From: Candidatus Hydrothermarchaeota archaeon
GTDB lineage: Archaea > CAYFZR01
Assembly: GCA_046760505.1 (NCBI GenBank)
Contig: JBHIEG010000002.1
Location: forward strand, 43,030 to 107,029
DNA length: 64,000 nt
Direction of reading: 5' to 3'
A program made the translations under genes and the position numbers. Shown here in pieces: positions 21,066 through 51,533 of the stretch. A model generated the notes under the pieces. That model did not search any database. It was not told the DNA's origin and was given only the letters and a program-made list of their open reading frames with translations. Positions within the stretch are counted from its first letter, which is position 1, and the number at the start of each line of letters is the position of its first letter.

Positions 21066-21122
21066 CTTTAATTCCCGGGATTAAACTTTTATATAATGTT
21101 TTATAAACTTTCTTCGAGAAAT

Positions 21123-22148
21123 ATGAATCCTCAGGTAATTCAAGAGATAGTTAAAAGTTTAAGAGATATAGAGGAGAAAAGGAGGCGTATCGGCGAAAAA
21201 ATCCGATCTCTGAAAAACGACTTATCCAAATCTTTGATATTAAAGGTAAACCCGCATCCTCTAGACCGCTTAACCGTCTTGGGAGTTGATGGGTCTATTG
21301 TTTCTCACGAGTATCATGATCTCCTGCTAATTATGGTCAGGAGTATAGCGGTTTTTTTCTCTTTCGAAGACAACACGCTGTCAGAATGCTTCTATTACCC
21401 CAATTCCACTCCAGAAATCGAAGTATGTCCGATATACGGTTTTCAATCGGATGAGATAAAGAGTATATCTTCCCAAAGGAGGTTGGAATCTGAGGTTAAA
21501 ATGGCAATTGAAGCAATAGATGAATTCAAACCTGATATAATTTTACTTGATGGGTCTATAGTGCCTCAAATATCCGATAAGCCAAAGAAAAAATTAATAA
21601 GGCTGTATGAGAAATTATATGCAAGGTGTATGGATGATGGCCTGTCCTTGGCTGGTGTAATCGAGGACAGCAGGGGTACGAGGTTCGTAAATATGTTGCT
21701 GAACGAAATCATGCCAAATAAATTCAAAGACAAAGAAGAGTTCTTTCAAAAATCAAATGACACCAACATATTGAACCATGTCCTCGATGCCGGAGAAAGG
21801 ACATTCGGTTTTCCGTATTCTGATGCTCCAGGAGATCACCCGGTTTTGAAGGAATTTGATCCTGAATACGCAGGAAAAATTTACTCATTTTACATGAAAA
21901 CAGTGGATTTTGATAGACCCCTCAGAGTAGAATACTTAAGACATGATAACGATGATTTCATAGCAGGAACAGTGTTCTCATTATCTATGTTTCATTCGGA
22001 CTATGGCTTTCCCAGTATTTTAATAGAAGCCGATGAAAGAGTCAGAATCTCAAGGAAAGATCTAGACCACCTTTACAGAGTTCTCATAGAAGAACTCGGA
22101 GACATATCTTCAATTATGCGTATGAGGAGGGAAAGAAGACCATTTTAA
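21123..22148 (+). CDS. nurA: DNA double-strand break repair nuclease NurA
   Basis: GVDGS, LLDGS, GV.EDS, YGFP..LIEAD; adjacent to herA. Confidence 0.92.
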   Translation: MNPQVIQEIVKSLRDIEEKRRRIGEKIRSLKNDLSKSLILKVNPHPLDRLTVLGVDGSIVSHEYHDLLLIMVRSIAVFFSFEDNTLSECFYYPNSTPEIEVCPIYGFQSDEIKSISSQRRLESEVKMAIEAIDEFKPDIILLDGSIVPQISDKPKKKLIRLYEKLYARCMDDGLSLAGVIEDSRGTRFVNMLLNEIMPNKFKDKEEFFQKSNDTNILNHVLDAGERTFGFPYSDAPGDHPVLKEFDPEYAGKIYSFYMKTVDFDRPLRVEYLRHDNDDFIAGTVFSLSMFHSDYGFPSILIEADERVRISRKDLDHLYRVLIEELGDISSIMRMRRERRPF

Positions 22149-22158
22149 AGGTGATTGA

Positions 22159-23667
22159 ATGAAAGAGATAGGAACCGTAATATCTGAACCAAGCCCTTCT
22201 CCAAGCGAATTCGCTTTTGTATTAAACGTTGATGGTTTGGCAGTAAGAAAGGGAAATTTTGTACAGTTAGAAACAGAAGAAGGAACAATGATAGCAAATG
22301 TGAAGGATTTATACAAATCTAACCGATATTTTGAGAAAGCAGAGACGGTGAGAGAATATGAAAGAAGTGGAAGGCCTTTAAGCAGCATATTCCCCGCACC
22401 CCGATGGGAGATAACGGTCGGAATCGCTAGACCACTTGGAGTTTTTTCATCCGAGACTTTGAATCGAGCAACCTATCCTCCATCCACAGGTACAAAGGTG
22501 TATCTAGCAGATGAAGGTTTGCTTTCCAAATTTTTGGGAAGTGAGGAGAATGGTATTAATGTAGGGACCTTAAGGTTTCATGATCTTCCAATAAAATTGA
22601 ATATGACTCGATTGTTTCAAAAACACCTTGCCATACTGGCTATGAGCGGAGCAGGGAAATCTTATCTTGTTTCTGTACTTTTAGAAGAGTTACTGAGCAG
22701 GAAAGAGGGGGGAAGGCTCGGCGTAATAATATTTGATGTTCACGGTGAGTATACGGGATTTTCAACAATCCCTCCTCAAGGGTATGTTGATTACAGCGGG
22801 AGTGTCAATGTATTTTCTGGGGAAGATATAAGTATTGGCGTCCCTAATTTAAGTGCAGGTGATTTCTCCAAGTTATTGCCCAATATAACACCCGTTCAAA
22901 AAAGAGAATTGAGCAGGATTTTGAACAACCTCAAAATGACCTTTGACTCATATTCACTAGAAGATATTGTCGAATTTATTCAAAAAGATCCTGACATGAA
23001 CAAAAAAACAAAAGAGGCGATGATAAGCTGGCTTATTGGACTGGATGACCTGGGTCTATTTGGAAAATACGATTATCCTTCTCTTAAAAAAATAGTCGAG
23101 CCAAGAAGGGCAACGATTTTCGACCTAAGCGATATAATCGATATGCAAAGGAAACAAATAATAGTTGCTCACATAGCGAGAAGACTCTTCAATCTAAGAA
23201 GATCTGGAGAAATTTGTCCATTTCTCATTGTTTTAGAGGAGGCACACCAGTTTATACCAGAAGGAGAAAGAGTTGCAAGAATAACAAGGGAAATATTTGA
23301 AACCATTGCAAGGGAAGGAAGAAAATTCTATGCTTCCCTTTGCTTGGTAAGCCAGCGACCAATAAAACTCTCAACAACGGTTCTCTCTCAGTGTAACACC
23401 CATATAATTCTAAGGGTGACAAATCCCTACGATCTCGACCATATAGGAAGGTCATCAGAGGGAATCACTCGAGATGTTCTGGACCAGATATCTACCCTTA
23501 GAGTCGGCGAGGCTCTGATTGTTGGAGAAGCTATAAATCAACCGATATTTGTAAAGGTAAGAGAGAGAACTTCACAGCCACCGTTGCACAGTCTAAGTCT
23601 TGAAGAGGCGTGCATACTCTATGAAAATAAAGAAAAAGAAGAGCTAGAAGATTCTGACATATACTGA
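22159..23667 (+). CDS. herA: HerA helicase/translocase (HAS barrel + DUF87 ATPase)
   Basis: KHLAILAMSGAGKS, DVHGEY, LEEAH, REGRKF, SQRP. Confidence 0.92.
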   Translation: MKEIGTVISEPSPSPSEFAFVLNVDGLAVRKGNFVQLETEEGTMIANVKDLYKSNRYFEKAETVREYERSGRPLSSIFPAPRWEITVGIARPLGVFSSETLNRATYPPSTGTKVYLADEGLLSKFLGSEENGINVGTLRFHDLPIKLNMTRLFQKHLAILAMSGAGKSYLVSVLLEELLSRKEGGRLGVIIFDVHGEYTGFSTIPPQGYVDYSGSVNVFSGEDISIGVPNLSAGDFSKLLPNITPVQKRELSRILNNLKMTFDSYSLEDIVEFIQKDPDMNKKTKEAMISWLIGLDDLGLFGKYDYPSLKKIVEPRRATIFDLSDIIDMQRKQIIVAHIARRLFNLRRSGEICPFLIVLEEAHQFIPEGERVARITREIFETIAREGRKFYASLCLVSQRPIKLSTTVLSQCNTHIILRVTNPYDLDHIGRSSEGITRDVLDQISTLRVGEALIVGEAINQPIFVKVRERTSQPPLHSLSLEEACILYENKEKEELEDSDIY

Positions 23668-26026: not shown

Positions 26027-26902
26027 ATGAAATACGCTCCACACATATTTTTCATTTTAATTATTTCTTTCACATCTGTTGCCTTTTCACAGTCCATAAG
26101 TGTGAGTTCAAGTTACCCTGATTTCATAGCTCAGGGTGACAAAGGTGTAGTCCTTTTAACCATTAAAAACGATTTTGATAAACCCAGAGAAGTATCTATT
26201 TTCATTCATACATCTGCTTTTGATGTAATCGGGCACAATCCGGTTAATTTTACGATCCTCCCTATGACAACGAAGAGCGTTCCATTCGTTCTAACACCAG
26301 TAAAAGAGCCTGGTTACTACAAGGTAGACGTCATAATTAGCGTAGACAATAAGATAAAGGGACAAGAATTCTACATAGAAATAAGGAAACCGATGATGGT
26401 AATCAATTTTCCAAGAATTGCCATTTTCATACTGTTTATTTTTGCCTTCTATCTTGTACTTGCTTTTTTAAGGGGAGAATCATTAAGAAAAGAGTTCAAC
26501 GAACTCGTTAAGTCTCTTGTTTTTGCATTGGCCCTTTATTTTGTATTAAGCAGTTTATTAACTTATGCTTTTAATTCAGATACACCCATAGTCGCTGTTG
26601 CGTCAGATAGCATGGTTCCGACATTAAATAGGGGGGACGTTTTGTTTGTAAAGGGAGGAGAAGACATAAATGAAGGAGATATTATAGTTTACAGAAGTCC
26701 GGTTGGAAACATACCGATTATCCATAGGGTTATAAAAGTTAAAGACAACCAGACATATATAACTAAAGGAGATGCGAATCCAGCACCAGATCCATGGGAG
26801 GTAAAGAAAAGTTGGGTAACCGGCAAGGTAATTATGATAGATCATAGACCCCTTCTCATTCCATGGATCGGTAAGTTGCGTTTGATCCTCTCTGGCTTGT
26901 GA
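26027..26902 (+). CDS. Signal peptidase I (S26/Sec11) fused behind a secreted Ig-like domain and 2 TM
   Basis: VASDSMVP (Ser), PIIHRV (His), TKGDAN; N-terminal signal peptide plus ~100-aa beta-sandwich-like segment. Confidence 0.85.
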   Translation: MKYAPHIFFILIISFTSVAFSQSISVSSSYPDFIAQGDKGVVLLTIKNDFDKPREVSIFIHTSAFDVIGHNPVNFTILPMTTKSVPFVLTPVKEPGYYKVDVIISVDNKIKGQEFYIEIRKPMMVINFPRIAIFILFIFAFYLVLAFLRGESLRKEFNELVKSLVFALALYFVLSSLLTYAFNSDTPIVAVASDSMVPTLNRGDVLFVKGGEDINEGDIIVYRSPVGNIPIIHRVIKVKDNQTYITKGDANPAPDPWEVKKSWVTGKVIMIDHRPLLIPWIGKLRLILSGL

Positions 26903-26903
26903 G

Positions 26904-27248
26904 GTGATTAAAATAGAACTGATAAAAATACCGAAGACAAGATGTATCGTATGTAGTCAGATGCATAAAAGAAAAAAAATAGAATTTGAGGAATTACACT
27001 GGGACATCGTAAGCGGCGCATTTTCTGAAGAACAAATATACTTCTGCCCTGCTCATATCGATGAATTCGTGGATTGGATAATAAAAAATCCCAAGATGCT
27101 TGAGAAAAAAATTCCTGCAAGCGGATTAATGATCAATGCCGAAATAGCAACTCCAATTGATGTATTGGGATTATTAAAAAAGAGAATAAATGAAAAAATC
27201 GAGTTCTATAAAAAAATAGATGAAAAACTGGAGTTCTTGAACAAATAA
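26904..27248 (+). CDS. Hypothetical protein, possible Zn finger (CxxC...CxxH)
   Basis: CIVC and CPAH; abuts the S26 gene. Confidence 0.6.
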   Translation: MIKIELIKIPKTRCIVCSQMHKRKKIEFEELHWDIVSGAFSEEQIYFCPAHIDEFVDWIIKNPKMLEKKIPASGLMINAEIATPIDVLGLLKKRINEKIEFYKKIDEKLEFLNK

Positions 27249-27318
27249 AGTATTTCCCATCAGGGAAAAATCAAAGCAATTTCGCGGGATGATTGATAGA
27301 TAAAGGAGGCTTCACTGT

Positions 27319-27903
27319 TTATTTTAAGTTTCTTATTCTAAATAAATCCGGATAAAATAAAAAAATCATGCCCAGAGAGATTAAGATTAGAGATATCCAA
27401 AATAGTTTAAGATGTATCCTAGATGAGAGAATTATGAAATCAAATATGAAAAGAATTATCCCCAAATGCAATAGACCAGAGCCAAGCTGTAGGGTAAACC
27501 CGATCTTCTTAAAAAATAGTTTCTTTCTTTGAATCAATGCAATTATCAAATACAATTGAATCGTCAATAAAACAATAAAAAGGAATGCAAGAGCGAATTT
27601 TAAATCGTAAATGGAAATAAATAAGGTTGATACTAAAATTAATGAGATTATTCTGATAATTTTCTCGTAAAAAATTCTTTTTGGAATGCAAATTCCCAAA
27701 AGGATGACTATGACCAGTATAAAGGGTAAAGATAACTTGGTCAGATGCTGAACGTAATTATCATATAACGGAGTCTGTTCCCAGTTCACAAACCTCAAAC
27801 TGTATGTATGCCCTAGGATAACACCGTAGAAAAAGACAATTCCCAGTAAGAATAGTACACAAAACGTAATCTCTTCTAGGCTTTCATGGATTCTTTTATG
27901 CAT
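27319..27903 (-). CDS. Membrane protein, probable C-terminal part of a split CcmF (CcmF2-like)
   Basis: About 6 TM, GSGLLHLG His motif, overlaps and follows the CcmF1-like gene. Confidence 0.55.
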   Translation of the reverse strand: MHKRIHESLEEITFCVLFLLGIVFFYGVILGHTYSLRFVNWEQTPLYDNYVQHLTKLSLPFILVIVILLGICIPKRIFYEKIIRIISLILVSTLFISIYDLKFALAFLFIVLLTIQLYLIIALIQRKKLFFKKIGFTLQLGSGLLHLGIILFIFDFIILSSRIHLKLFWISLILISLGMIFLFYPDLFRIRNLK

Positions 27904-28825
27904 AGGTGTGAACTCCTTTTACGTAATATGAGATAAGGAATGTAAAAATCAAAGAAATGTAACAAAATATTGCAACGCCTGCGATTACTTTTTTGTTCCT
28001 GTTTGTCAATCGAAGATGTAAGTAACCAGTGTAGAATAACCATAGCATTATGGAAGCGTTTATTTTTGGAGAAAACCACCATTTTTCGTCTTTCCATGCT
28101 TCAATTGCCCATGGATAACCAATTAGTAATCCTATGGTTAGCAAAAAATATCCAAACTTCGCGTAAGAAATCGCTGTCTGATCTCCTTTATCTTTAATCA
28201 ATACCAGGCCAGACATGGAAAAATTCAAAAAAAGCGATCCATAAGAAGCAAATAACAAAGGTGGATGTATCCACATGTAGGATGAGTTGTAATAGTAGAT
28301 CGCCTTTGAATAAAGGCGGGAATACGCATAGAATATTGTCTGATAATCGTAGTAAGCAGCATGAGAAGATTGAATAACCCAACCGTACAACTCTTTAGAA
28401 AAATTTGGAAGTGGTTCCAGAAATGGATTTGAGTATATGCATACGATCAATGTAAAAATCGCTATTGGAATGCTAGCTGCAATTTTTTCTTCTCTTTTAA
28501 TTGGAATCGAGAGTAAGACTGCGATAAAACACCAAAAGTACAATTTTTCGTTTTCAATCCATAGAGGAATCTTAAATCTAAAGTAAAAGTCGGAATAAGG
28601 ATTTTTAATTATCAACTGGGATATTTTATAGTGAAAGAATGCCAAGAAGATGAATCCGAGTAAAAAAAGAGAAGCATGTATGTATAGCGGTATTTCCGAC
28701 TTAGATTTTTTTAAAGAAAAGAAAATAAGAGAAAATGAGGACAAAATAAGTAAAGGAGTTAAAATTTCTCCAAAACCTATGGTTAGATCAAGGATCTCCA
28801 TGTAATTAGCCCATAGTGTAGACAT
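27896..28825 (-). CDS. Cytochrome c assembly protein (WWD domain; CcmF1/CcsA-like heme lyase)
   Basis: MWIHPP, YPWAIEAW...WWFSPKINAS WWD loop, YLH, terminal GVHTYA. Confidence 0.88.
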   Translation of the reverse strand: MSTLWANYMEILDLTIGFGEILTPLLILSSFSLIFFSLKKSKSEIPLYIHASLFLLGFIFLAFFHYKISQLIIKNPYSDFYFRFKIPLWIENEKLYFWCFIAVLLSIPIKREEKIAASIPIAIFTLIVCIYSNPFLEPLPNFSKELYGWVIQSSHAAYYDYQTIFYAYSRLYSKAIYYYNSSYMWIHPPLLFASYGSLFLNFSMSGLVLIKDKGDQTAISYAKFGYFLLTIGLLIGYPWAIEAWKDEKWWFSPKINASIMLWLFYTGYLHLRLTNRNKKVIAGVAIFCYISLIFTFLISYYVKGVHTYA

Positions 28826-28915
28826 ATCCTTACTCTGAACCTACCGACTTAAATGTTTTGATATAAAATAATTTATACTCCAAAAAACATTTTTATAAAC
28901 AAGGGCGTGCGCTAG

Positions 28916-29227
28916 ATGAAGTACGATGTTAAATGCAATAAATGTTCAACCAGATTTGTGGTTGAAAAAAATCCTAGTTGTCCAAGAAAAAAACCCAAAC
29001 ATCTGCTAGCACTCTGTCCAACATGTAACGTAACCAGAAAAACCATAGTCTCACTTTCTAAAGATAACTACGAAAATACAAGGGCTCTATCCAAATTGTT
29101 ATATATGTGTGCGTTGATTTATTTCGCATATATGATCGTAGAGATTTATTTAGTAAATGCAATAAATCTGGCAGATATATTGCTGTTGTTTGTACTCGGC
29201 ATGAGCGGATATATAACATCAAGGTGA
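28916..29227 (+). CDS. Zn-ribbon + 2-TM membrane protein (paralogue A)
   Basis: CNKC...CPTC then two TM. Confidence 0.7.
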   Translation: MKYDVKCNKCSTRFVVEKNPSCPRKKPKHLLALCPTCNVTRKTIVSLSKDNYENTRALSKLLYMCALIYFAYMIVEIYLVNAINLADILLLFVLGMSGYITSR

Positions 29228-29232
29228 ATAAA

Positions 29233-29700
29233 ATGGCTATACTCGAAAGCAAAGAAGACAAGCAGTGGAGGGAATTTTTAAGCTGGATAGCAGGTAAAAA
29301 ATTTAAGGATGTGGATGGCGCATTCGAATGGCTTGGTATAGAGGCCAAGAAGTTGAATGTGGATCCTCACAAATACATGGAATTACTCGGTCTCCTAGCA
29401 AAAACAATAAGTGCTTATGATAGCGCGGAGTTGATGGGGGCCGGCTTGCCAGAGTTTTTGAAGTCATACAATAAATTGAAAGAAGAAGCAAGCGATGAAT
29501 TTCCAAATGTCATAAGAACTATATTGGTAGGACTACAAATGAGATTTGTCGGAGATGCCATCTCTGTGGGCGGTGAGAAAGGTTTCATGCGACTTTCCAT
29601 TACATTGGGCTCAAGGATGATCGAACAAATTTTGTTTGGCGATAATCAGGTAAAAGAATTTCCATGGAGAGAAATCATAGAACTTGTGAAGGAAGAGTAA
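29233..29700 (+). CDS. Hypothetical alpha-helical protein
   Basis: ATG 29233 after AGGTGA SD. Confidence 0.65.
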   Translation: MAILESKEDKQWREFLSWIAGKKFKDVDGAFEWLGIEAKKLNVDPHKYMELLGLLAKTISAYDSAELMGAGLPEFLKSYNKLKEEASDEFPNVIRTILVGLQMRFVGDAISVGGEKGFMRLSITLGSRMIEQILFGDNQVKEFPWREIIELVKEE

Positions 29701-29953
29701 TGCGGGAGTCTGATTAAAATCCAATTTCTACCACCTTGCCTAGCTCTGTTGCAAGAGATCAGTCAAAAAAAGCTTTTGATATAGAATATCCTCATCATAT
29801 GTGAAAACTTCTTAGAAATGTTTAAAAGAAGAATTTTTTAGAGTAATAAACAAGAGAATAACATGCACCATTCGCTCTTCAAAACCAGATAACATAGATT
29901 TTAAATATTATCCATGAATTTTTTAAAATTAGACTTGTAACGCAGGTGTATGT

Positions 29954-30331
29954 ATGCAAGAGGATGAAATGTGGCATGTTATGTGTAGGGTTTGCGGGAA
30001 TAAATTCTACATAAAAAAACCTGCCAGAGAGTATGAGTTCCTTCTTAATCAATGCACGACCTGTAATGCACTTAGAAGAGTTTATGTTCTGGAAAAAGGT
30101 AAGCGGCGAGTCTTAAAGTATTATTATTTCCCCCGTATCAAAAAATTGGCAAGTCACCTCTTTACCTCAGTATTTTTTTTAGTGATGCTCGGAATCATGT
30201 TCCTTGGAGGGGGTCTGGCATACTTGGCCTATACAGCTCAGTACGACTTTGGAGGCCATATAGGACTAGCAGCAATAGCCGTTGCTCTATTCTTGATCAT
30301 CGACAAAGTATATGAACTTAAATTTGGATAG
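29954..30331 (+). CDS. Zn-ribbon + 2-TM membrane protein (paralogue B)
   Basis: CRVC...CTTC then two TM. Confidence 0.7.
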   Translation: MQEDEMWHVMCRVCGNKFYIKKPAREYEFLLNQCTTCNALRRVYVLEKGKRRVLKYYYFPRIKKLASHLFTSVFFLVMLGIMFLGGGLAYLAYTAQYDFGGHIGLAAIAVALFLIIDKVYELKFG

Positions 30332-30340
30332 TGGTAAGTC

Positions 30341-31036
30341 ATGGCTATTCCAGAAAAATTGAAAGAAGCAGATAAAATACTGTACGTTGAAATGGCATTC
30401 GGAGTGCTCCTACTTTTTTTTGCCATATACGGTATAGTTAACGCCTTTGATTATTTTGCCTCCGCATGGATGGGTCACATGGGAGACAGACTTGTTAGCA
30501 GGAGTGAAATTATTCCGTTTTGGAGAAGCGCCTTGGCTTCATGTGTGAGAATGGTTATTGTCGCCTTCATAGGAGGAGTGCTCACCGCTCACTCAGCGAT
30601 AGGTATTTTCGGAGAAGAAAGGTTATATGGACCCATTGCATCTGCGATGGAACAGATTACGTCAAAAGAGAGAAGTGGTAAGATAAAAATATCCGACGGT
30701 ATTTCTTTTATAACGGCTAAACTACACCGAAAAAACGCTCCGAGAACTGTTAATGCTTTATTAAATAAATTGCCATTATCGGTTGAGAAAGTCGAAGTGT
30801 ACAACGACAACGTTTTACTTTTAAATTTTGAACTTGATGTTGAAGGTGAAAACCAACGGATAACCATAAAAAATGGAGAAATAGGTTATATACCAGAGTT
30901 AAAACAAATTTGCATTGCAATCAATGAGGAAAGGATGATTTCCCCGGTGAATATAATCGGTAAAGTGGAAGAAGGAGATGCTTCTGCTCTACAAATAGAT
31001 AGAGGACTATCTATTAAAACATCGATGGTGGAATAA
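30341..31036 (+). CDS. 2-TM domain fused to cyclophilin-like (TM1367/DUF369-type) domain
   Basis: APRTV.AL...LP, GEIGY.P..K.ICI, SPVN.IGKV. Confidence 0.7.
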   Translation: MAIPEKLKEADKILYVEMAFGVLLLFFAIYGIVNAFDYFASAWMGHMGDRLVSRSEIIPFWRSALASCVRMVIVAFIGGVLTAHSAIGIFGEERLYGPIASAMEQITSKERSGKIKISDGISFITAKLHRKNAPRTVNALLNKLPLSVEKVEVYNDNVLLLNFELDVEGENQRITIKNGEIGYIPELKQICIAINEERMISPVNIIGKVEEGDASALQIDRGLSIKTSMVE

Positions 31037-31042
31037 TGATAG

Positions 31043-31252
31043 ATGGATAAAGACATTAGGATCTTAATAATCCTCCTCTGCATTATTATTGGTTTTTTGA
31101 TTTTAAGAGGTGTGGGATTTATACTTGCTGGCACATCTCTCATCATAATCTTTGGTTTCTCTCATCATCATTCTACCCTAACTTACATTCTTGAAGTACT
31201 CGGGATAATGTTCGTATTGTATGGAATAATAAGACTATACAGGGAGATTTGA
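31043..31252 (+). CDS. Small membrane protein
   Basis: 69 aa, highly hydrophobic, follows the upstream gene. Confidence 0.55.
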   Translation: MDKDIRILIILLCIIIGFLILRGVGFILAGTSLIIIFGFSHHHSTLTYILEVLGIMFVLYGIIRLYREI

Positions 31253-31657
31253 TAGAAAAATCTTTAATCTACCAACCTTTGGCAGTTTCACAATATGATT
31301 CTCGATGGTATAAAGTTTTCCAGATATCTTTGTGTTTTGAATTAAAAATGGACCCTTTAAACGACTTTTTCCTGAAATCGGATAGCCGACTAAATAGACC
31401 TTCCCCTTAATATCCAAGACCTCCATAATCACAGGAAAATTCATATCTACCACAACAAAATCTCCTTTTTTAATATTTATCGGACTTTCTACCAGCAGAA
31501 TGTCACCACGATTTATAATCGGGCTCAGTAAATCATTTTCTTGAATATAAAAAGGTCTTTCAGTATTTAAAGCAATTACAAACGAATTAAAAATCACAAA
31601 AACAAGCAATATGCCGGATACTATAATTTTGATAAGTAACTGTAACTCTTTGCTCAT
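31235..31657 (-). CDS. Degenerate S26 signal-peptidase homologue lacking catalytic Ser/His
   Basis: Aligns with 26027-26902 (P..NRGD.L.V, I..GD..V, P..G.L) but SMVP is LLSP and IIHRV is VIMEV. Confidence 0.7.
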   Translation of the reverse strand: MSKELQLLIKIIVSGILLVFVIFNSFVIALNTERPFYIQENDLLSPIINRGDILLVESPINIKKGDFVVVDMNFPVIMEVLDIKGKVYLVGYPISGKSRLKGPFLIQNTKISGKLYTIENHIVKLPKVGRLKIFLSNLPV

Positions 31658-31811
31658 TTATACCAGCTCAGCTTTGTGGGGTTTTAATCTCTTTCTTATA
31701 GCCCAAAACCCCAAAAACGTTGCGGCTCTTTCAAGATGTGATTTCCTTAGCATGAAAAAAATTCTAAAGCGGATATAAGTATAAGATTTATCTATGGAGA
31801 TGTATCTTTTC

Positions 31812-31841
31812 AAAAATTTCGGAGGGGGCTGAGCCCCTTTT
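31812..31841 (-). terminator. GC hairpin plus T-tract after the tetraheme cytochrome gene
   Basis: Minus strand AAAAGGGGC-TCA-GCCCCCTCC then AAATTTTT, ~10 nt after the stop codon. Confidence 0.6.
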
Positions 31842-31851
31842 GTGCAAAGAA

Positions 31852-32511
31852 TTATGTCTTACTTGTTACTGTCCAACTGAACGACTGATTTGCTACGTAT
31901 CCACTACCCCAAGTCACAGTATCGGTTTGTGCATTGTATGTTATATTGAAGCCCATTTTATTAGTCCACGTGATTCCTACGGGTACTTGCGTATGACATG
32001 TTACACATCCCCTAGAAGTGTTACTCATCTGGTTCAGTGCGATCTTCGCATCAGAAGCCCAACCCATGCTACCGGTTGCGTTTCTTACCATAGGTCCGTG
32101 AGCACTAGAGTTAAGCCAGAGAACTCTGTTTGAGTAACCTGCTGCATCCCCTTTTATGTGACATCTCGCACAATCCGAATATGTTACATTGTGGCCGTGA
32201 ACACTTACAGAAGGATCGTAAGAGCCGGCATCCATGCCTTCAGTCGAATGGCACCACATGCAAGCAGTGTTGTTAATATTGCTAGCGTTCCAGTGGGGGA
32301 TTGTCCCGCTACCAGCAAAATCGGCCGAGGCAGCCTCCGTTGCCTCTGCTGAATGACAACTCCTACATTTTGGAATAACCCACGTGTGACTCCCTTGATA
32401 CCTTGCTAGGGTAGATGGTATTGCTACGAAGACTATTAGTACCAGCAGAGCAAGCAATAATGCAAATGCAGCTAACCTTCTCCTTGCCCTCCTCCTCATG
32501 TATTCCGCCAT
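31852..32511 (-). CDS. Secreted tetraheme c-type cytochrome (candidate filament subunit)
   Basis: 4 CxxCH (CRSCH, CMWCH, CARCH, CVTCH), signal peptide ending PSTLA/RYQGSH, 8 N-x-S/T sequons. Confidence 0.92.
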   Translation of the reverse strand: MAEYMRRRARRRLAAFALLLALLVLIVFVAIPSTLARYQGSHTWVIPKCRSCHSAEATEAASADFAGSGTIPHWNASNINNTACMWCHSTEGMDAGSYDPSVSVHGHNVTYSDCARCHIKGDAAGYSNRVLWLNSSAHGPMVRNATGSMGWASDAKIALNQMSNTSRGCVTCHTQVPVGITWTNKMGFNITYNAQTDTVTWGSGYVANQSFSWTVTSKT

Positions 32512-32517
32512 GTAAGT

Positions 32518-32566
32518 TTCACCTCGCTATATTATATATTAAAGCGATCCATATATATAATTTTTG
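32518..32566 (-). promoter_or_regulatory. Promoter (BRE CAAAAA, TATA TTATATAT) and SD GAGGTGA of the tetraheme cytochrome gene
   Basis: Minus strand CAAAAATTATATATATGG...TCGCT-N14-AGCGAGGTGAAACTTACATG. Confidence 0.65.
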
Positions 32567-32621
32567 ATAGATATATCTACGCATTTGCTCCAAACACCGG
32601 TGATGGACGAAATATAGGTCG

Positions 32622-33161
32622 TTAACGTCTGAATAAAGATAATTTGATGATTCTTGAAAATGCCTGCAGAGATCTAAATGCATCTCTCTTCCTTTTTTCC
32701 AGATCCGGTTTGCTTAACTTGTACTTTGTAAGAAAATTACCTTTTGCGACGGATAACTTTTCCATAAGAAGATCAGGAGTCCTTAAAAGTCCTACCCACG
32801 GAATACGTTCGACAACCTTACCTTCAATAGCCTCAAATGGTATGAAACCATCATCCATAGGAACGTTGTCTCCTTTGGTTATCACACCTCCTTCTTTTAT
32901 ATTTATGATTCTGTGGGTAACAGTAGTTTTTCCTGATTTATAAACGACTATATCTCCTACGTTAAGACTTCTCTCATCAACGTCTTTGTAAACGACGATA
33001 TCTCCCATCTTTAGTGCAGGTACCATACTCTCGCTTGAAACGTATGAAAAATCGTAGAGATAAAAGACAATGAGTGTGAGGCCAATCAGCAGTAGAACAA
33101 CTGTTAAAGGGACGTACCTTCCTATAGACTTAACCTTTCTAGATAAATACCGTCGCCGCAG
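32622..33161 (-). CDS. Signal peptidase I (S26); probable CTG start
   Basis: TM and VSSESMVP catalytic Ser lie upstream of ATG 33026; TVTHRI, TKGDN present. Confidence 0.8.
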   Translation of the reverse strand: MRRRYLSRKVKSIGRYVPLTVVLLLIGLTLIVFYLYDFSYVSSESMVPALKMGDIVVYKDVDERSLNVGDIVVYKSGKTTVTHRIINIKEGGVITKGDNVPMDDGFIPFEAIEGKVVERIPWVGLLRTPDLLMEKLSVAKGNFLTKYKLSKPDLEKRKRDAFRSLQAFSRIIKLSLFRR

Positions 33162-33164
33162 ATT

Positions 33165-33581
33165 TCATCCTCTCCATGTAAAGTTGACCTTTACATCGGT
33201 ATGGCATGCCATACAGCCTTCTGATCTAGTCAATTGGCTGTGTATGCTGTTGTTTAGAGATTTAGATTGGTTAGTTCCACTATGGCAATTCATGCATTCT
33301 GTCAGAGTTACGTTATGGCCAAATTGGTGACATTCTTTGCATTGAGTTTGATTTATTTCGGTAAAGTAATAATGAGGCCAGATAGATGATTTTGTTTTAT
33401 TTAATTCCTCAACAATGTCTACGTGACAAACAACACAGTTTGGACTAGATATCCATGTGTGGGAACCCATGTACCTCGATAGGGTTGTTGGCAAAAGCAA
33501 TAAGGCGATTAAAATGATTAATGAAAATGCTGCAAATATTTTAACCGTTTTCCTCAAGAATGATTTTCCCACATAGATCAC
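33165..33581 (-). CDS. Secreted tetraheme c-type cytochrome, short paralogue of 31852-32511
   Basis: CVVCH, CKECH, CMNCH, CMACH; PTTLS/RYMGSHTW; 6 sequons. Confidence 0.9.
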   Translation of the reverse strand: MIYVGKSFLRKTVKIFAAFSLIILIALLLLPTTLSRYMGSHTWISSPNCVVCHVDIVEELNKTKSSIWPHYYFTEINQTQCKECHQFGHNVTLTECMNCHSGTNQSKSLNNSIHSQLTRSEGCMACHTDVKVNFTWRG

Positions 33582-34201
33582 CTGAGTAGGGCTATAAAAT
33601 CATGCCAGAATGATAGATCAAAAATCTTATTTATAGCATCTCTAATCGTGGGTGATTTAATTTCATATCCAACTGGGGTCTCAGGTTTAATTTCTTCTAT
33701 TTTTTCACTTTTTCCATGACATGCATCACAAGGCTTTTTATTCTCATGTATTCCATGCAAGTCCTCACCATGACATGCTATACAGTTATTCAATGGTTTG
33801 TAAATTTCCTCTTCACCACCGTGGCATCTTACGCAATCCACACTTATGTGTATCTCATGAGGATTAGACCCGTGACACCTCCAGCACAATTCTTTATTTC
33901 CGGAATGGGCTTTTTTATAATCATGACAAGCACACCTTATTCTCTCAAAACTCTTTGGAGAGTGGCACCAGTTGCAATCATGGATAGGGTTATCCAAATG
34001 AAACCAAGAAATGCCTATGTCGTATCTCTCATGACATGTCCTACAGTAAGTATCGAAGTGATCAGGATTGAAATGGGGTATCCTCTTGGAGAAATCCAAA
34101 TTGCTATGGCAAGAAAGACAGTTCCTGCCCCTAAATTCAAGTCTTGTTAAACTTGGTGCGATCAAAAGGACCATGATGATAAGAGCTACAAGTTTTTTCA
34201 T
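33578..34201 (-). CDS. Secreted multiheme c-type cytochrome (7 CxxCH + 1 CxCH)
   Basis: CLSCH, CRTCH, CNWCH, CACH, CWRCH, CVRCH, CIACH, CDACH; signal peptide MKKLVALII; amphipathic C-tail. Confidence 0.9.
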   Translation of the reverse strand: MKKLVALIIMVLLIAPSLTRLEFRGRNCLSCHSNLDFSKRIPHFNPDHFDTYCRTCHERYDIGISWFHLDNPIHDCNWCHSPKSFERIRCACHDYKKAHSGNKELCWRCHGSNPHEIHISVDCVRCHGGEEEIYKPLNNCIACHGEDLHGIHENKKPCDACHGKSEKIEEIKPETPVGYEIKSPTIRDAINKIFDLSFWHDFIALLR

Positions 34202-34311
34202 ATAAAATAAACTATACTGAGACACGCATATATCTTACGGTGTTCTCAGTAGTTTACTGAGGCATCACCTTTTTGGTTTACAATCTCTCACTAAATATTC
34301 CAAATTAGTAT

Positions 34312-34656
34312 CTACTCTGAGATCTTTTCTTTAAATTCTCTAAGCGTATTGTTTCCCGTCTCCAACTCTTCTCTTATTATTGAAAACATTTCCATTATCA
34401 TTGCAGTTCTGCCTTCTTTGTAGTTCATCTCTACCATTTGCAAAAAATATTCGACAATGGCGATGTTTTTAACAAAAGACTCCGTAATATTTGAGTTTCT
34501 TGCCATATTCAGAAGAGAGCGGGTCATGATCAGCGTCTCTTCCAGATGGAATTCCCAGCCCTCGTCCATGTATAAAGGATCTTCTAGTTTTTTTGTAGAT
34601 TCCATTATGTTTTTAAGTGTAAGTTCCATTTTATCAATTTGGCTCTCCGAGACCAT
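34312..34656 (-). CDS. Hypothetical helical protein
   Basis: 114 aa, acidic. Confidence 0.6.
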   Translation of the reverse strand: MVSESQIDKMELTLKNIMESTKKLEDPLYMDEGWEFHLEETLIMTRSLLNMARNSNITESFVKNIAIVEYFLQMVEMNYKEGRTAMIMEMFSIIREELETGNNTLREFKEKISE

Positions 34657-50045: not shown

Positions 50046-51533
50046 ATGTTTAAAATGGAAGTGATAGGACAGATTTTTGGCGAAGTTGGATCTTCAGGAT
50101 TCAATATACTAGTGAGAGACTCAAGCGTCTCTAAAGGATCTTATGTTAAGGTAAAGCATGAAGTCAACGGCTGGGTCTTAGCTCAAATCAGATCTTTGAA
50201 AAGATACAACGAGAAATACCAGCTGAGTGACGAAATAAGAGAGAATAAGGAGAGAATCATTGCAAGAATAGAAGTTATTGGATTTAGAAACGACCAAAAT
50301 GTTTTGGATTTTCCAAAAACGCCCTTTAGACCTGGAGAGTATGTTTATCTCGCAGACAAAAAACTCATAATGAATACGCTAGGATTGAACGTGAGAACGT
50401 CGAAAGGAATATACTTGGGATTACTGGAACACACGGATATACCGGTATACCTCGATGCAAACAGAGTAGTACAAAAACATGTAAGTATTCTGGCAAAAAC
50501 CGGTGCAGGAAAGAGTTATACGGTTGGAGTTTTGGTAGAAGAACTTTTAGAAAAAGGAGTTCCTGTGTTAATTATTGACCCCCATGGAGAATATCACACT
50601 CTCAGATATCCAAATAAAAATGAAAATATGGAAAAATTTGGTATTAAACCGAGAAGTTACGATACTTTAGAATACTCACCACTTCCAGATATTAATCAAT
50701 GCGATAAAGGATTCTACCTAAGCCACAAGAACCTTGATGCTTGGGAAATCCAAGAATTACTCCCCAAACTTACAGCCACCCAAAAAGGTATATTATATCA
50801 AGCCGTAAGGACTCTTCAAGAGACTAAAAAGAACTATGATATGTACGACATAATAAACGAAATAGTCGATCACCAAAGCAAATCGAAATGGGGACTCATA
50901 GAGCATTTAGAGGAACTTTTGAGTTATCCTTTCTTTAAGGCTAGAGCCACAAAAATAAAGAACTTGATTAATAAAGGAGTCGCAAGTATAATTAATCTGC
51001 GAGGATTGCCCTCAGATATGCAATCTTTGATCGTTGCAAGACTGGGAAGAGGTCTTTTCGAGGCTAGAAAACTAAACAAAGTCTTACCATTTTTGTTTTT
51101 GATAGAGGAAGCCCATAATTTTGCCCCGGAGAGAGGGTTTGGAGAAGTTCCATCATCAAAAATATTGAGAATTATAGCGAGTGAAGGCAGGAAATTCGGT
51201 CTTGGACTGTGCGTGGTAAGCCAAAGACCTGCCAGAGTAGATAAAAATGTCCTTTCTCAGTGCAATACACAAATAATATTGAAAATAACAAATCCAAACG
51301 ATCTGAAGGCGATAAGTCAATCCTTAGAAGGATTTACGCCTGGACTTGAAAGAGAAATTAAAAGATTGCCCCCAGGTACCGCATTGGTGGTTGGAGAATC
51401 TTTAGAAACACCTGTATTTGTAAAAATAAGGTTAAGAAAGTCGTTACACGGAGGAGAAGGTGTTTCCGTTATATCCCGAGTACAGGAAAGGAAGAGTATC
51501 ATAGATGTGTTCGGTGAAATTTTTAGGCGTTAA
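50046..51533 (+). CDS. Second HerA-like (DUF87) ATPase
   Basis: HVSILAKTGAGKS, DPHGEY, IEEAH, EGRKFG, SQRP. Confidence 0.9.
   Translation: MFKMEVIGQIFGEVGSSGFNILVRDSSVSKGSYVKVKHEVNGWVLAQIRSLKRYNEKYQLSDEIRENKERIIARIEVIGFRNDQNVLDFPKTPFRPGEYVYLADKKLIMNTLGLNVRTSKGIYLGLLEHTDIPVYLDANRVVQKHVSILAKTGAGKSYTVGVLVEELLEKGVPVLIIDPHGEYHTLRYPNKNENMEKFGIKPRSYDTLEYSPLPDINQCDKGFYLSHKNLDAWEIQELLPKLTATQKGILYQAVRTLQETKKNYDMYDIINEIVDHQSKSKWGLIEHLEELLSYPFFKARATKIKNLINKGVASIINLRGLPSDMQSLIVARLGRGLFEARKLNKVLPFLFLIEEAHNFAPERGFGEVPSSKILRIIASEGRKFGLGLCVVSQRPARVDKNVLSQCNTQIILKITNPNDLKAISQSLEGFTPGLEREIKRLPPGTALVVGESLETPVFVKIRLRKSLHGGEGVSVISRVQERKSIIDVFGEIFRR

Follow-up and report, generated by a model that had tools for sequence, protein, structure and literature searches.

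We propose that a minus-strand gene run within a 64,000-nt stretch of a Candidatus Hydrothermarchaeota genome (contig JBHIEG010000002.1; hereafter the window, whose positions serve as coordinates throughout) probably represents a compact extracellular cytochrome nanowire (ECN) locus of the type found in Archaeoglobus veneficus, whose AvECN nanowire was reportedly described by Baquero et al. in 2023. The run encodes two tetraheme cytochromes that almost certainly belong to the AvECN family, and the longer of the two is likely to form filaments. The host (genome G000) is a hydrothermal-vent archaeon that, with a single sister genome (G001), makes up its phylum in our collection, and it probably builds conductive filaments. 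The initial annotation had the run begin with a multiheme cytochrome and continue through the short tetraheme, an S26 signal peptidase, and the long tetraheme to an S26-like gene, and this order was recovered as follows:

33578-34225, minus strand: secreted multiheme cytochrome of 215 amino acids, with seven CxxCH motifs and one CxCH
33165-33581, minus strand: short, tail-less tetraheme assigned to the AvECN family, 138 amino acids (135 from the second GTG, 33572)
32622-33164, minus strand: middle S26 signal peptidase (TIGR02228) with intact Ser-His-Asp motifs
31852-32511, minus strand: long tetraheme assigned to the AvECN family, 219 amino acids, candidate filament subunit
31235-31657, minus strand: S26-like paralogue without the catalytic Ser and His
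32512-32566, minus strand: BRE/TATA-like element (32566-32553) and Shine-Dalgarno sequence GAGGTGA (32525-32519) of the long tetraheme
31825-31837, minus strand: short GC hairpin GGGGC-TCA-GCCCC, 3′ of the long tetraheme

The family assignment rests on sequence comparisons that converge on one known filament. Against 177,635 PDB sequences, both tetrahemes found 8E5G as their best match (E 2.9e-4 for the long protein and 1.5e-6 for the short one) and 8E5F as their second (E 0.35 and 7e-4, respectively). The structure-search result labels 8E5G as an A. veneficus cytochrome filament, and in available text of PMC12954529 the two entries are called AvECN and PcECN. A profile built from eight sequences (the window pair with six homologues encoded in G001, G025, and G026) reached 8E5G at an E value of 2.2e-18 over profile positions 15-204 of 209; the next match lay at 6e-5, and PcECN was absent among matches at E 0.01. 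The proposed kinship with AvECN was thus borne out almost over the full length, whereas that with PcECN held only as a weak second match. The two tetrahemes are also collinear paralogues, as had been read from a common motif (31% identity, E 3e-19). The same profile retrieved 881 representatives at E ≤0.001, and 87 of the best 150 are no longer than 300 amino acids and have a leader motif in common. A homologue search by word index had returned 2 proteins only, and a single-protein search of genome contigs for related loci gave one weak, unrelated locus.

Conservation within the family points to the features expected of a secreted bis-His cytochrome. In an alignment of 90 sequences, from which two fragments and the window's own cluster representative were left out, six histidines never vary (the four of the CxxCH motifs, H6, and H102), and two more, H37 and H71, are conserved in at least 90%. 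The initial annotation's candidate distal ligand for each heme is therefore matched by four extra conserved histidines, as it is for the short protein in a 46-row alignment, and we infer that both cytochromes would ligate their hemes through paired histidines. The family boundary around the first of these histidines reads L-P-x-T-x-[SA]-x-[FY]-x-G-[QS]-H-x-W, and both window proteins carry a hydrophobic leader ending in P-x-T-x-[AS]-x-Y-x-G-x-H. A leader motif drawn from the family occurs in 2 of the 2452 open reading frames (ORFs) of G000, which are the two tetrahemes themselves. The position four residues before the first His, the presumed P2′ site, is Phe or Tyr in 85 of 89 homologues, and the long protein is predicted to be cleaved between PSTLA and RYQGSH. 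The 8 and 6 N-glycosylation sequons counted earlier in the long and short proteins exceed shuffled expectation (means 2.7 and 1.7, P about 0.0005 each), and only 4 of 2084 G000 ORFs of at least 120 amino acids reach 3.6 sequons per 100 residues.

The two paralogues differ at their C-termini. The long protein ends in a 46-residue tail, near the family median of 47, that is modelled as beta strands and aligns to the C-terminal region of AvECN, in agreement with the beta-rich tail noticed at first; the short protein has only 11 residues after its last CxxCH. A quick 104-row tree places both window proteins within a distinct 14-row subclade (Shimodaira-Hasegawa-like approximate likelihood ratio test [SH-aLRT] 99) that holds tail-less forms of G000, G001, G025, P0007, P0008, and P0009. 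The pairing of a long with a short protein is therefore a feature of the subclade, and we tentatively entertain a role for the short tetraheme as cap or base of the filament. One subclade genome, G025, also has, on a contig of 6 kb, two oppositely oriented long ECN copies that are nearly identical (L012:2-538 and L012:2630-3316). In sequencing runs X1, X3, and X4, low-depth contigs match just a short part of the long tetraheme gene (window 32072-32125), which suggests that a related organism with a divergent copy was present in the same samples.

The long tetraheme appears to have its own expression signals, although these stood up unevenly. The BRE/TATA element, CAAAAATTATATATA, is kept in G001. 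The Shine-Dalgarno sequence GAGGTGA is present as described, but G001 has GAGGAGA in its place, and the 3′ hairpin is kept in G001, but its folding energy is not significant (z −0.64) and a terminator scan was silent there. A sigma-70 promoter scan, whose model is ill-suited to archaea, gave results at chance level, and an Rfam scan of the window returned no match. The whole block is kept in G001, and the ten genes compared are all under purifying selection (rough nonsynonymous-to-synonymous rate ratios, dN/dS, of 0.03-0.29). Because the flanking housekeeping genes are collinear as well, G001 adds no independent synteny evidence. Four DNA runs from one hydrothermal-vent study span the stretch, with no indel listed in the locus genes.

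The initial annotation had set against the nanowire the reading that the tetrahemes are membrane-anchored quinol dehydrogenases of the NapC/NrfH type, which we consider very improbable. TIGR03153 matches weakly (22.5 and 29 bits), as does PF03264, and together with the N-terminal hydrophobic helix this would fit such enzymes, but the scores are far under the cut-offs (134.2 and 24.1) and the match to AvECN is much stronger. No partner reductase lies nearby, and the NapC-like 12-heme proteins of the genome are encoded elsewhere, on contig C13. The motif CxxCHxM, which we take to be characteristic of NapC/NrfH, is absent from both tetrahemes.

A second line of evidence is the association of these cytochromes with S26 peptidases. 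Three of the four S26 matches in G000 fall in the locus region, the fourth being on contig C6. The middle S26 (TIGR02228, 75.4 bits against a cut-off of 51.85) and a third S26 at 26027-26902 (98.2 bits) retain their catalytic motifs. The S26-like protein at 31235-31657 (25.8 bits, below the cut-off) has neither Ser nor His, which bears out its description as dead in the catalytic sense, but its rough dN/dS of 0.17 is not that of a pseudogene; no such paralogue was found beside the nanowire genes of other loci. Among 401 archaeal genomes, 19 carry the ECN family (E 1e-8), and the predicted synteny with a peptidase was found in 11 of these, in which an S26 lies no more than 10 kb from an ECN gene (G000, G001, G155, G163, G195, G215, G235, G255, G283, G295, and G303). 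The linkage extends to seven of nine families, but five of them share one 38-genome phylum, leaving three phylum-level groups; by rough estimate, chance adjacency would amount to a few per cent per genome, far under the observed fraction. The eight ECN-bearing genomes without a linked S26 are fragmented assemblies, and in three of them (G070, G275, and G355) a related S26 sits on another contig; for G335 and G355, non-linkage was judged from contig numbers. The ECN-S26 link was not stated in the available text of the papers searched, the primary AvECN paper being outside that search.

In a 38-row tree, the middle S26, on a long branch, joins weakly a 15-row group (ultrafast bootstrap [UFBoot] 86, SH-aLRT 96) that comprises all sampled ECN-linked S26 and two unlinked ones; the other two S26 of the locus region, the dead and the third, are placed with housekeeping copies. 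A second tree was built without G303hk, a long branch. The Bacillus SipW model (NF046067) scored the S26 proteins at 34-40 bits against a curated cut-off of 190, and no SipW-cognate leader model was among the NCBIfam matches. TasA, which has Phe at P2′, is cleaved by the dedicated SipW, and an aromatic P2′ residue hampers Escherichia coli LepB, although the block for TasA was traced mainly to Trp at P2 (available text of PMC10269814). A dedicated peptidase is plausible for the tetrahemes because TasA with its aromatic P2′ is a SipW substrate and such residues hinder LepB, and on balance we lean toward a middle S26 that is dedicated to the nanowire; the third S26 is probably not nanowire-specific. 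In families f83, f100, and f118, the ECN-type S26 starts with a (QY)n repeat of varying length (L036:2920-3801, L038:6613-7461, L039:11005-11838, and L061:1291-2127).

The middle S26 has an unusual start. No ATG, GTG, or TTG precedes its catalytic Ser, and the frame runs on directly after the TGA of the short tetraheme. Because this in-frame junction is identical in G001, and the codons for LRRRYLSRK differ synonymously between the two genomes, the CTG at 33161, three bases past the TGA (window 33159-33167), is the probable start codon. An ATG that overlaps the TGA opens a frame of only 9-12 codons in both genomes. Read-through of the TGA to give a cytochrome-peptidase fusion was considered and rejected, as no hydrophobic segment precedes the basic RRRY cluster, from which we infer that the peptidase would face inward.

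Several observations weigh against a nanowire matured by its own peptidase, the first of them concerning the S26 proteins. G025, G026, G048, G315, and G335 each have one S26 detected genome-wide and none near the ECN gene, and some of the proteins closest to the window pair come from two of them, G025 and G026; because of these five genomes, a dedicated peptidase is not universal. Approximately unbiased (AU) tests rejected neither an ECN-linked clade (p 0.34) nor local triplication (p 0.44). These results would suit a scenario in which filaments form but the neighbouring S26 are local housekeeping duplicates of no special role and a generic peptidase matures the cytochromes, as appears to be the case for the archaeal bundling pilin AbpA (according to available text of PMC9245690). 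Such a scenario is improbable given the adjacency in 11 of 19 genomes from three phylum-level groups, and linked S26 stand mostly apart from housekeeping copies. The more inclusive proposal that all three S26 are cognate to the nanowire found no support, since the dead and third S26 group with housekeeping S26, though the AU test would permit a local triplication.

The remaining counterpoints concern the filament itself. AlphaFold2 models of the heme-free tetrahemes have pLDDT values of 66 and 69. Foldseek ranked 8E5G first, but weakly (E 2.1, TM 0.38), and so did VIA-align for the long protein (Z 3.5, root-mean-square deviation 8.9 over 133 residues); for the short protein, 8E5G received a weak Z of 2.2. 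The comparison with AvECN suggested at the outset thus placed that filament first in three fold searches, but with weak scores from low-confidence models. Complex prediction with two long subunits and four hemes gave no answer (score 0.01) and so speaks neither for nor against polymerization. In the available text of a 2026 paper, the physiological role of AvECN and PcECN filaments is called unresolved, and an ECN homologue was not detected as a filament by cryo-EM (PMC13748539). G000 yielded neither the conserved membrane protein (best E 0.019) nor the giant 20-70-heme proteins that other ECN loci encode, and the queries used for complex I 49 kDa, RnfD, and MqnA/D (futalosine pathway to menaquinone) had no match in it. 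The conserved membrane protein, for which no Pfam match was obtained (2 tested), accompanies ECN and S26 genes in eight loci, at the following places:

L023:13509-14318
L024:18928-19737
L025:6847-7707
L027:11828-13606
L030:10771-11940
L033:659-1357
L038:5499-6437
L039:11860-12837

Alternatively, the tetrahemes could be AvECN-family surface cytochromes that act as monomers, short oligomers, or leader-anchored proteins in the manner of MmcX, importing electrons for Wood-Ljungdahl and Hdr metabolism without long wires. The CdhC/ACS-CODH, Fwd-like, Mvh-type, and Hdr genes of the host would fit such a role, as would the placement of the window pair in its divergent 14-row subclade, apart from the closest AvECN relatives. 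We nevertheless regard this alternative as unlikely: cleavage is indicated by the conserved boundary P-x-T-x-[SA]-x-[FY] and by the intact S26 alongside, the long protein has kept the AvECN-aligned C-terminal beta tail, and the MmcX authors likewise suggest a nanowire (available text of PMC11176372).

If the locus does encode a nanowire, the tetraheme apoproteins would be exported through Sec and receive their hemes from the Ccm machinery that the genome encodes. The middle S26 would cut after PSTLA or PTTLS, leaving Tyr at P2′ where TasA has Phe, and the first His ligand would sit on the N-terminus freed by this cleavage. The long protein, with its own promoter and beta tail, would then polymerize into a glycosylated, insulated wire of bis-His hemes, with the tail-less paralogue as a minor component at its initiation, base, or tip. 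AvECN-type filaments use His ligands of neighbouring subunits, according to a general statement in available text of 10.1101/2023.06.12.544705. The multiheme cytochrome of the run, held to the membrane by a C-terminal helix, could exchange electrons between the wire and redox modules of the membrane whose genes lie elsewhere, such as an NrfD/Fe-S/cytochrome module and the NapC-like 12-heme proteins. Electrons could move in either direction, as export to minerals or partner cells or as import of the kind reported for MmcX. In a bolder version, the locus would be a minimal two-subunit nanowire in which the tail-less paralogue serves specifically to initiate or cap the filament, a dedicated SipW-like peptidase for aromatic P2′ sites, perhaps assisted by the dead S26 in a non-catalytic role, releases both subunits, and the wire is the main electron route; we hold this speculative and on the doubtful side.

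The redox partner and heme-handling genes fit this nanowire scheme to different degrees. The heme-handling genes and the other features around the run are:

27896-28825, minus strand: CcmF-N-like heme-handling membrane protein (PF01578) with a divergent WWD-type motif
27319-27903, minus strand: 194-amino acid membrane protein, CcmF C-terminal-like by language-model and predicted-structure leads
26027-26902, plus strand: third S26, intact, with an N-terminal extra domain
30341-31036, plus strand: membrane protein with a cyclophilin-like domain (PF04126)
34312-34656, minus strand: 114-amino acid ORF upstream of the cytochrome run

The cytochrome upstream of the short tetraheme, first taken for an 8-heme protein, is indeed multiheme but has seven CxxCH and one CxCH, a site also found in three 5-6-heme partners of other loci. 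The expectation of a small multiheme partner is supported by its recurrence: eight other S26-linked ECN loci, and also G025, encode a 5-6-heme cytochrome that has a signal peptide and whose C-terminus looks amphipathic. The 7+1-heme protein has an amphipathic-looking C-terminal segment by eye and matches a profile of these partners at E 2e-10; because three other G000 cytochromes match it equally well or better, the likeness amounts to family-level homology. We therefore treat the protein as a candidate membrane-proximal redox partner.

The CcmF-like gene at 27896-28825 is well above the PF01578 cut-off (70.5 bits against 29.9) but far below that of TIGR00353, and the 194-amino acid protein at 27319-27903 has CcmF C-terminal leads from a language model (0.81) and from predicted structure (TM 0.59-0.65). 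This pair and the third S26 had been placed near the run; they lie 3-5 kb away, but five plus-strand genes intervene. None of 23 other fetched loci encodes a counterpart of the pair beyond weak similarity of the CcmC type. Elsewhere, G000 carries another split pair, a CcmF-like protein of 634 amino acids, and a CcmC-like gene next to genes resembling CcmABE (all labelled from sequence). A role of the split CcmF as dedicated heme lyase accordingly stays hypothetical. The cyclophilin-like membrane protein, next to the ECN pair in G000 and G001 alike, is possibly part of the locus and could be a folding helper; a homologue (L012:1210-1899) adjoins the tetraheme pair in G025, which belongs to a different, single-genome phylum. 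Small zinc-ribbon membrane proteins are encoded at window 28916-29227 and 29954-30331, and a homologue of their N-terminal segment is fused to a tetraheme cytochrome at G000:C15:29293-30021. The 114-amino acid ORF matched no family above cut-off and had no homologue in the fetched loci. Farther away, the window holds what are presumably NurA-like and HerA-like genes (21096-23667) and a second HerA-like ATPase (50046-51533), as labelled from sequence.

The gene content of the host (100% complete, 5.7% contamination) would fit an organism that moves electrons across its envelope. With the queries used, G000 had no match to MCR alpha, NIR_SIR, or cytochrome bd; COX1 and NrfA gave partial matches that reached cut-off only when summed or on short stretches, and one molybdopterin enzyme was found, within a Fwd-like cluster, with no second one. 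Besides CdhC and CODH, the genome encodes a fumarate-reductase-type flavoprotein and a cytochrome/Fe-S/NrfD module. Hdr genes accompany its two hydrogenases of the Mvh type, two 12-heme proteins are NapC-like, and 15 further or local ORFs have at least two CxxCH motifs. An NrfD membrane subunit is fused to an FAD-linked oxidase (PF03916 + PF01565 + PF02913, 867 amino acids; L019:2146-6992, G000:C10:44130-48988) downstream of 6-heme and 4-heme cytochromes and of an Fe-S protein of the four-cluster type; a molybdopterin subunit is absent. The fusion is also intact in G001 (L073, G001:C52; 87% identity) and hence no assembly artefact, and it may couple oxidation of 2-hydroxy acids to extracellular cytochromes. 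The two NapC/NirT-like 12-heme cytochromes are tandem genes with a long identical protein stretch (L021:6414-8430, G000:C13:21413-23429) that may reflect recent duplication, gene conversion, or assembly collapse, and they adjoin a 5-6-heme protein and Fwd-like genes.

The locus extends AvECN-type nanowires to a very rare, two-genome archaeal phylum from hydrothermal vents and suggests that an MCR-less host exchanges electrons with minerals or partner cells. A recent OmcE preprint points to the start and end of cytochrome wires as an unsolved problem, and a small locus with a natural tail-less paralogue and an adjoining peptidase would be a handy kit for heterologous reconstitution. Were the two-subunit version true, initiation, termination, and maturation would be testable with four or five genes, and the wire would be the main electron route, outward or inward, of a phylum with no recognised terminal reductase.

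Among known systems, AvECN is the closest. Homology is collinear over the leader, the four CxxCH motifs, the four extra histidines, and the C-terminal beta region, and close AvECN relatives in family f11 are likewise tandem paralogues with an S26 nearby. The window pair differs in belonging to a divergent subclade with RYxGSHTW and GHNVT in place of LFxGQHxW and HAA, in comprising two paralogues only, one of them tail-less, and in having neither a giant 20-70-heme protein nor a detectable conserved membrane protein nearby; its host belongs to a two-genome phylum, and whereas the filament is known for AvECN, the window locus is known from genes alone. PcECN of Pyrobaculum calidifontis (8E5F) resembles the window tetrahemes as a secreted archaeal tetraheme filament subunit and as their second PDB match, but sequence similarity is weak. 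MmcX of Met12 (Methanocellales) is an AvECN-homologous tetraheme that supported electron uptake, not export, in Shewanella, and its archaeon is described as non-methanogenic and acetogenic (available text of PMC11176372). The host metabolism is comparable in having Wood-Ljungdahl genes and no MCR found, a likeness drawn without sequence comparison, but Met12 has Rnf and has lost HdrABC (same text), whereas G000 has Hdr and no Rnf was detected.

The peptidase association has parallels as well. Multiheme clusters of ANME and Ferroglobus have been described with a neighbouring peptidase and a split CcmF (available text of PMC9012536; Chadwick et al. 2022), where a signal peptidase accompanies multiheme genes with proposed leader cleavage and extra or split CcmF paralogues (CcmF3) occur; the ANME peptidase, likened here by description, is tied there to the giant MHC-B and CcmF2 rather than to ECN subunits. 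Bacillus tapA-sipW-tasA and the haloarchaeal Tafi system (TafD/TafG) similarly combine a filament subunit with a co-encoded S26 and an aromatic P2′ residue, but the window substrate is a heme protein unrelated to TasA, and the SipW model scored far below cut-off. The ECN family and peptidases beside archaeal multiheme clusters are thus known already, and the locus extends a known system to a new lineage; what is distinctive in it is the combination of a tail-less paralogue with a minimal gene set.

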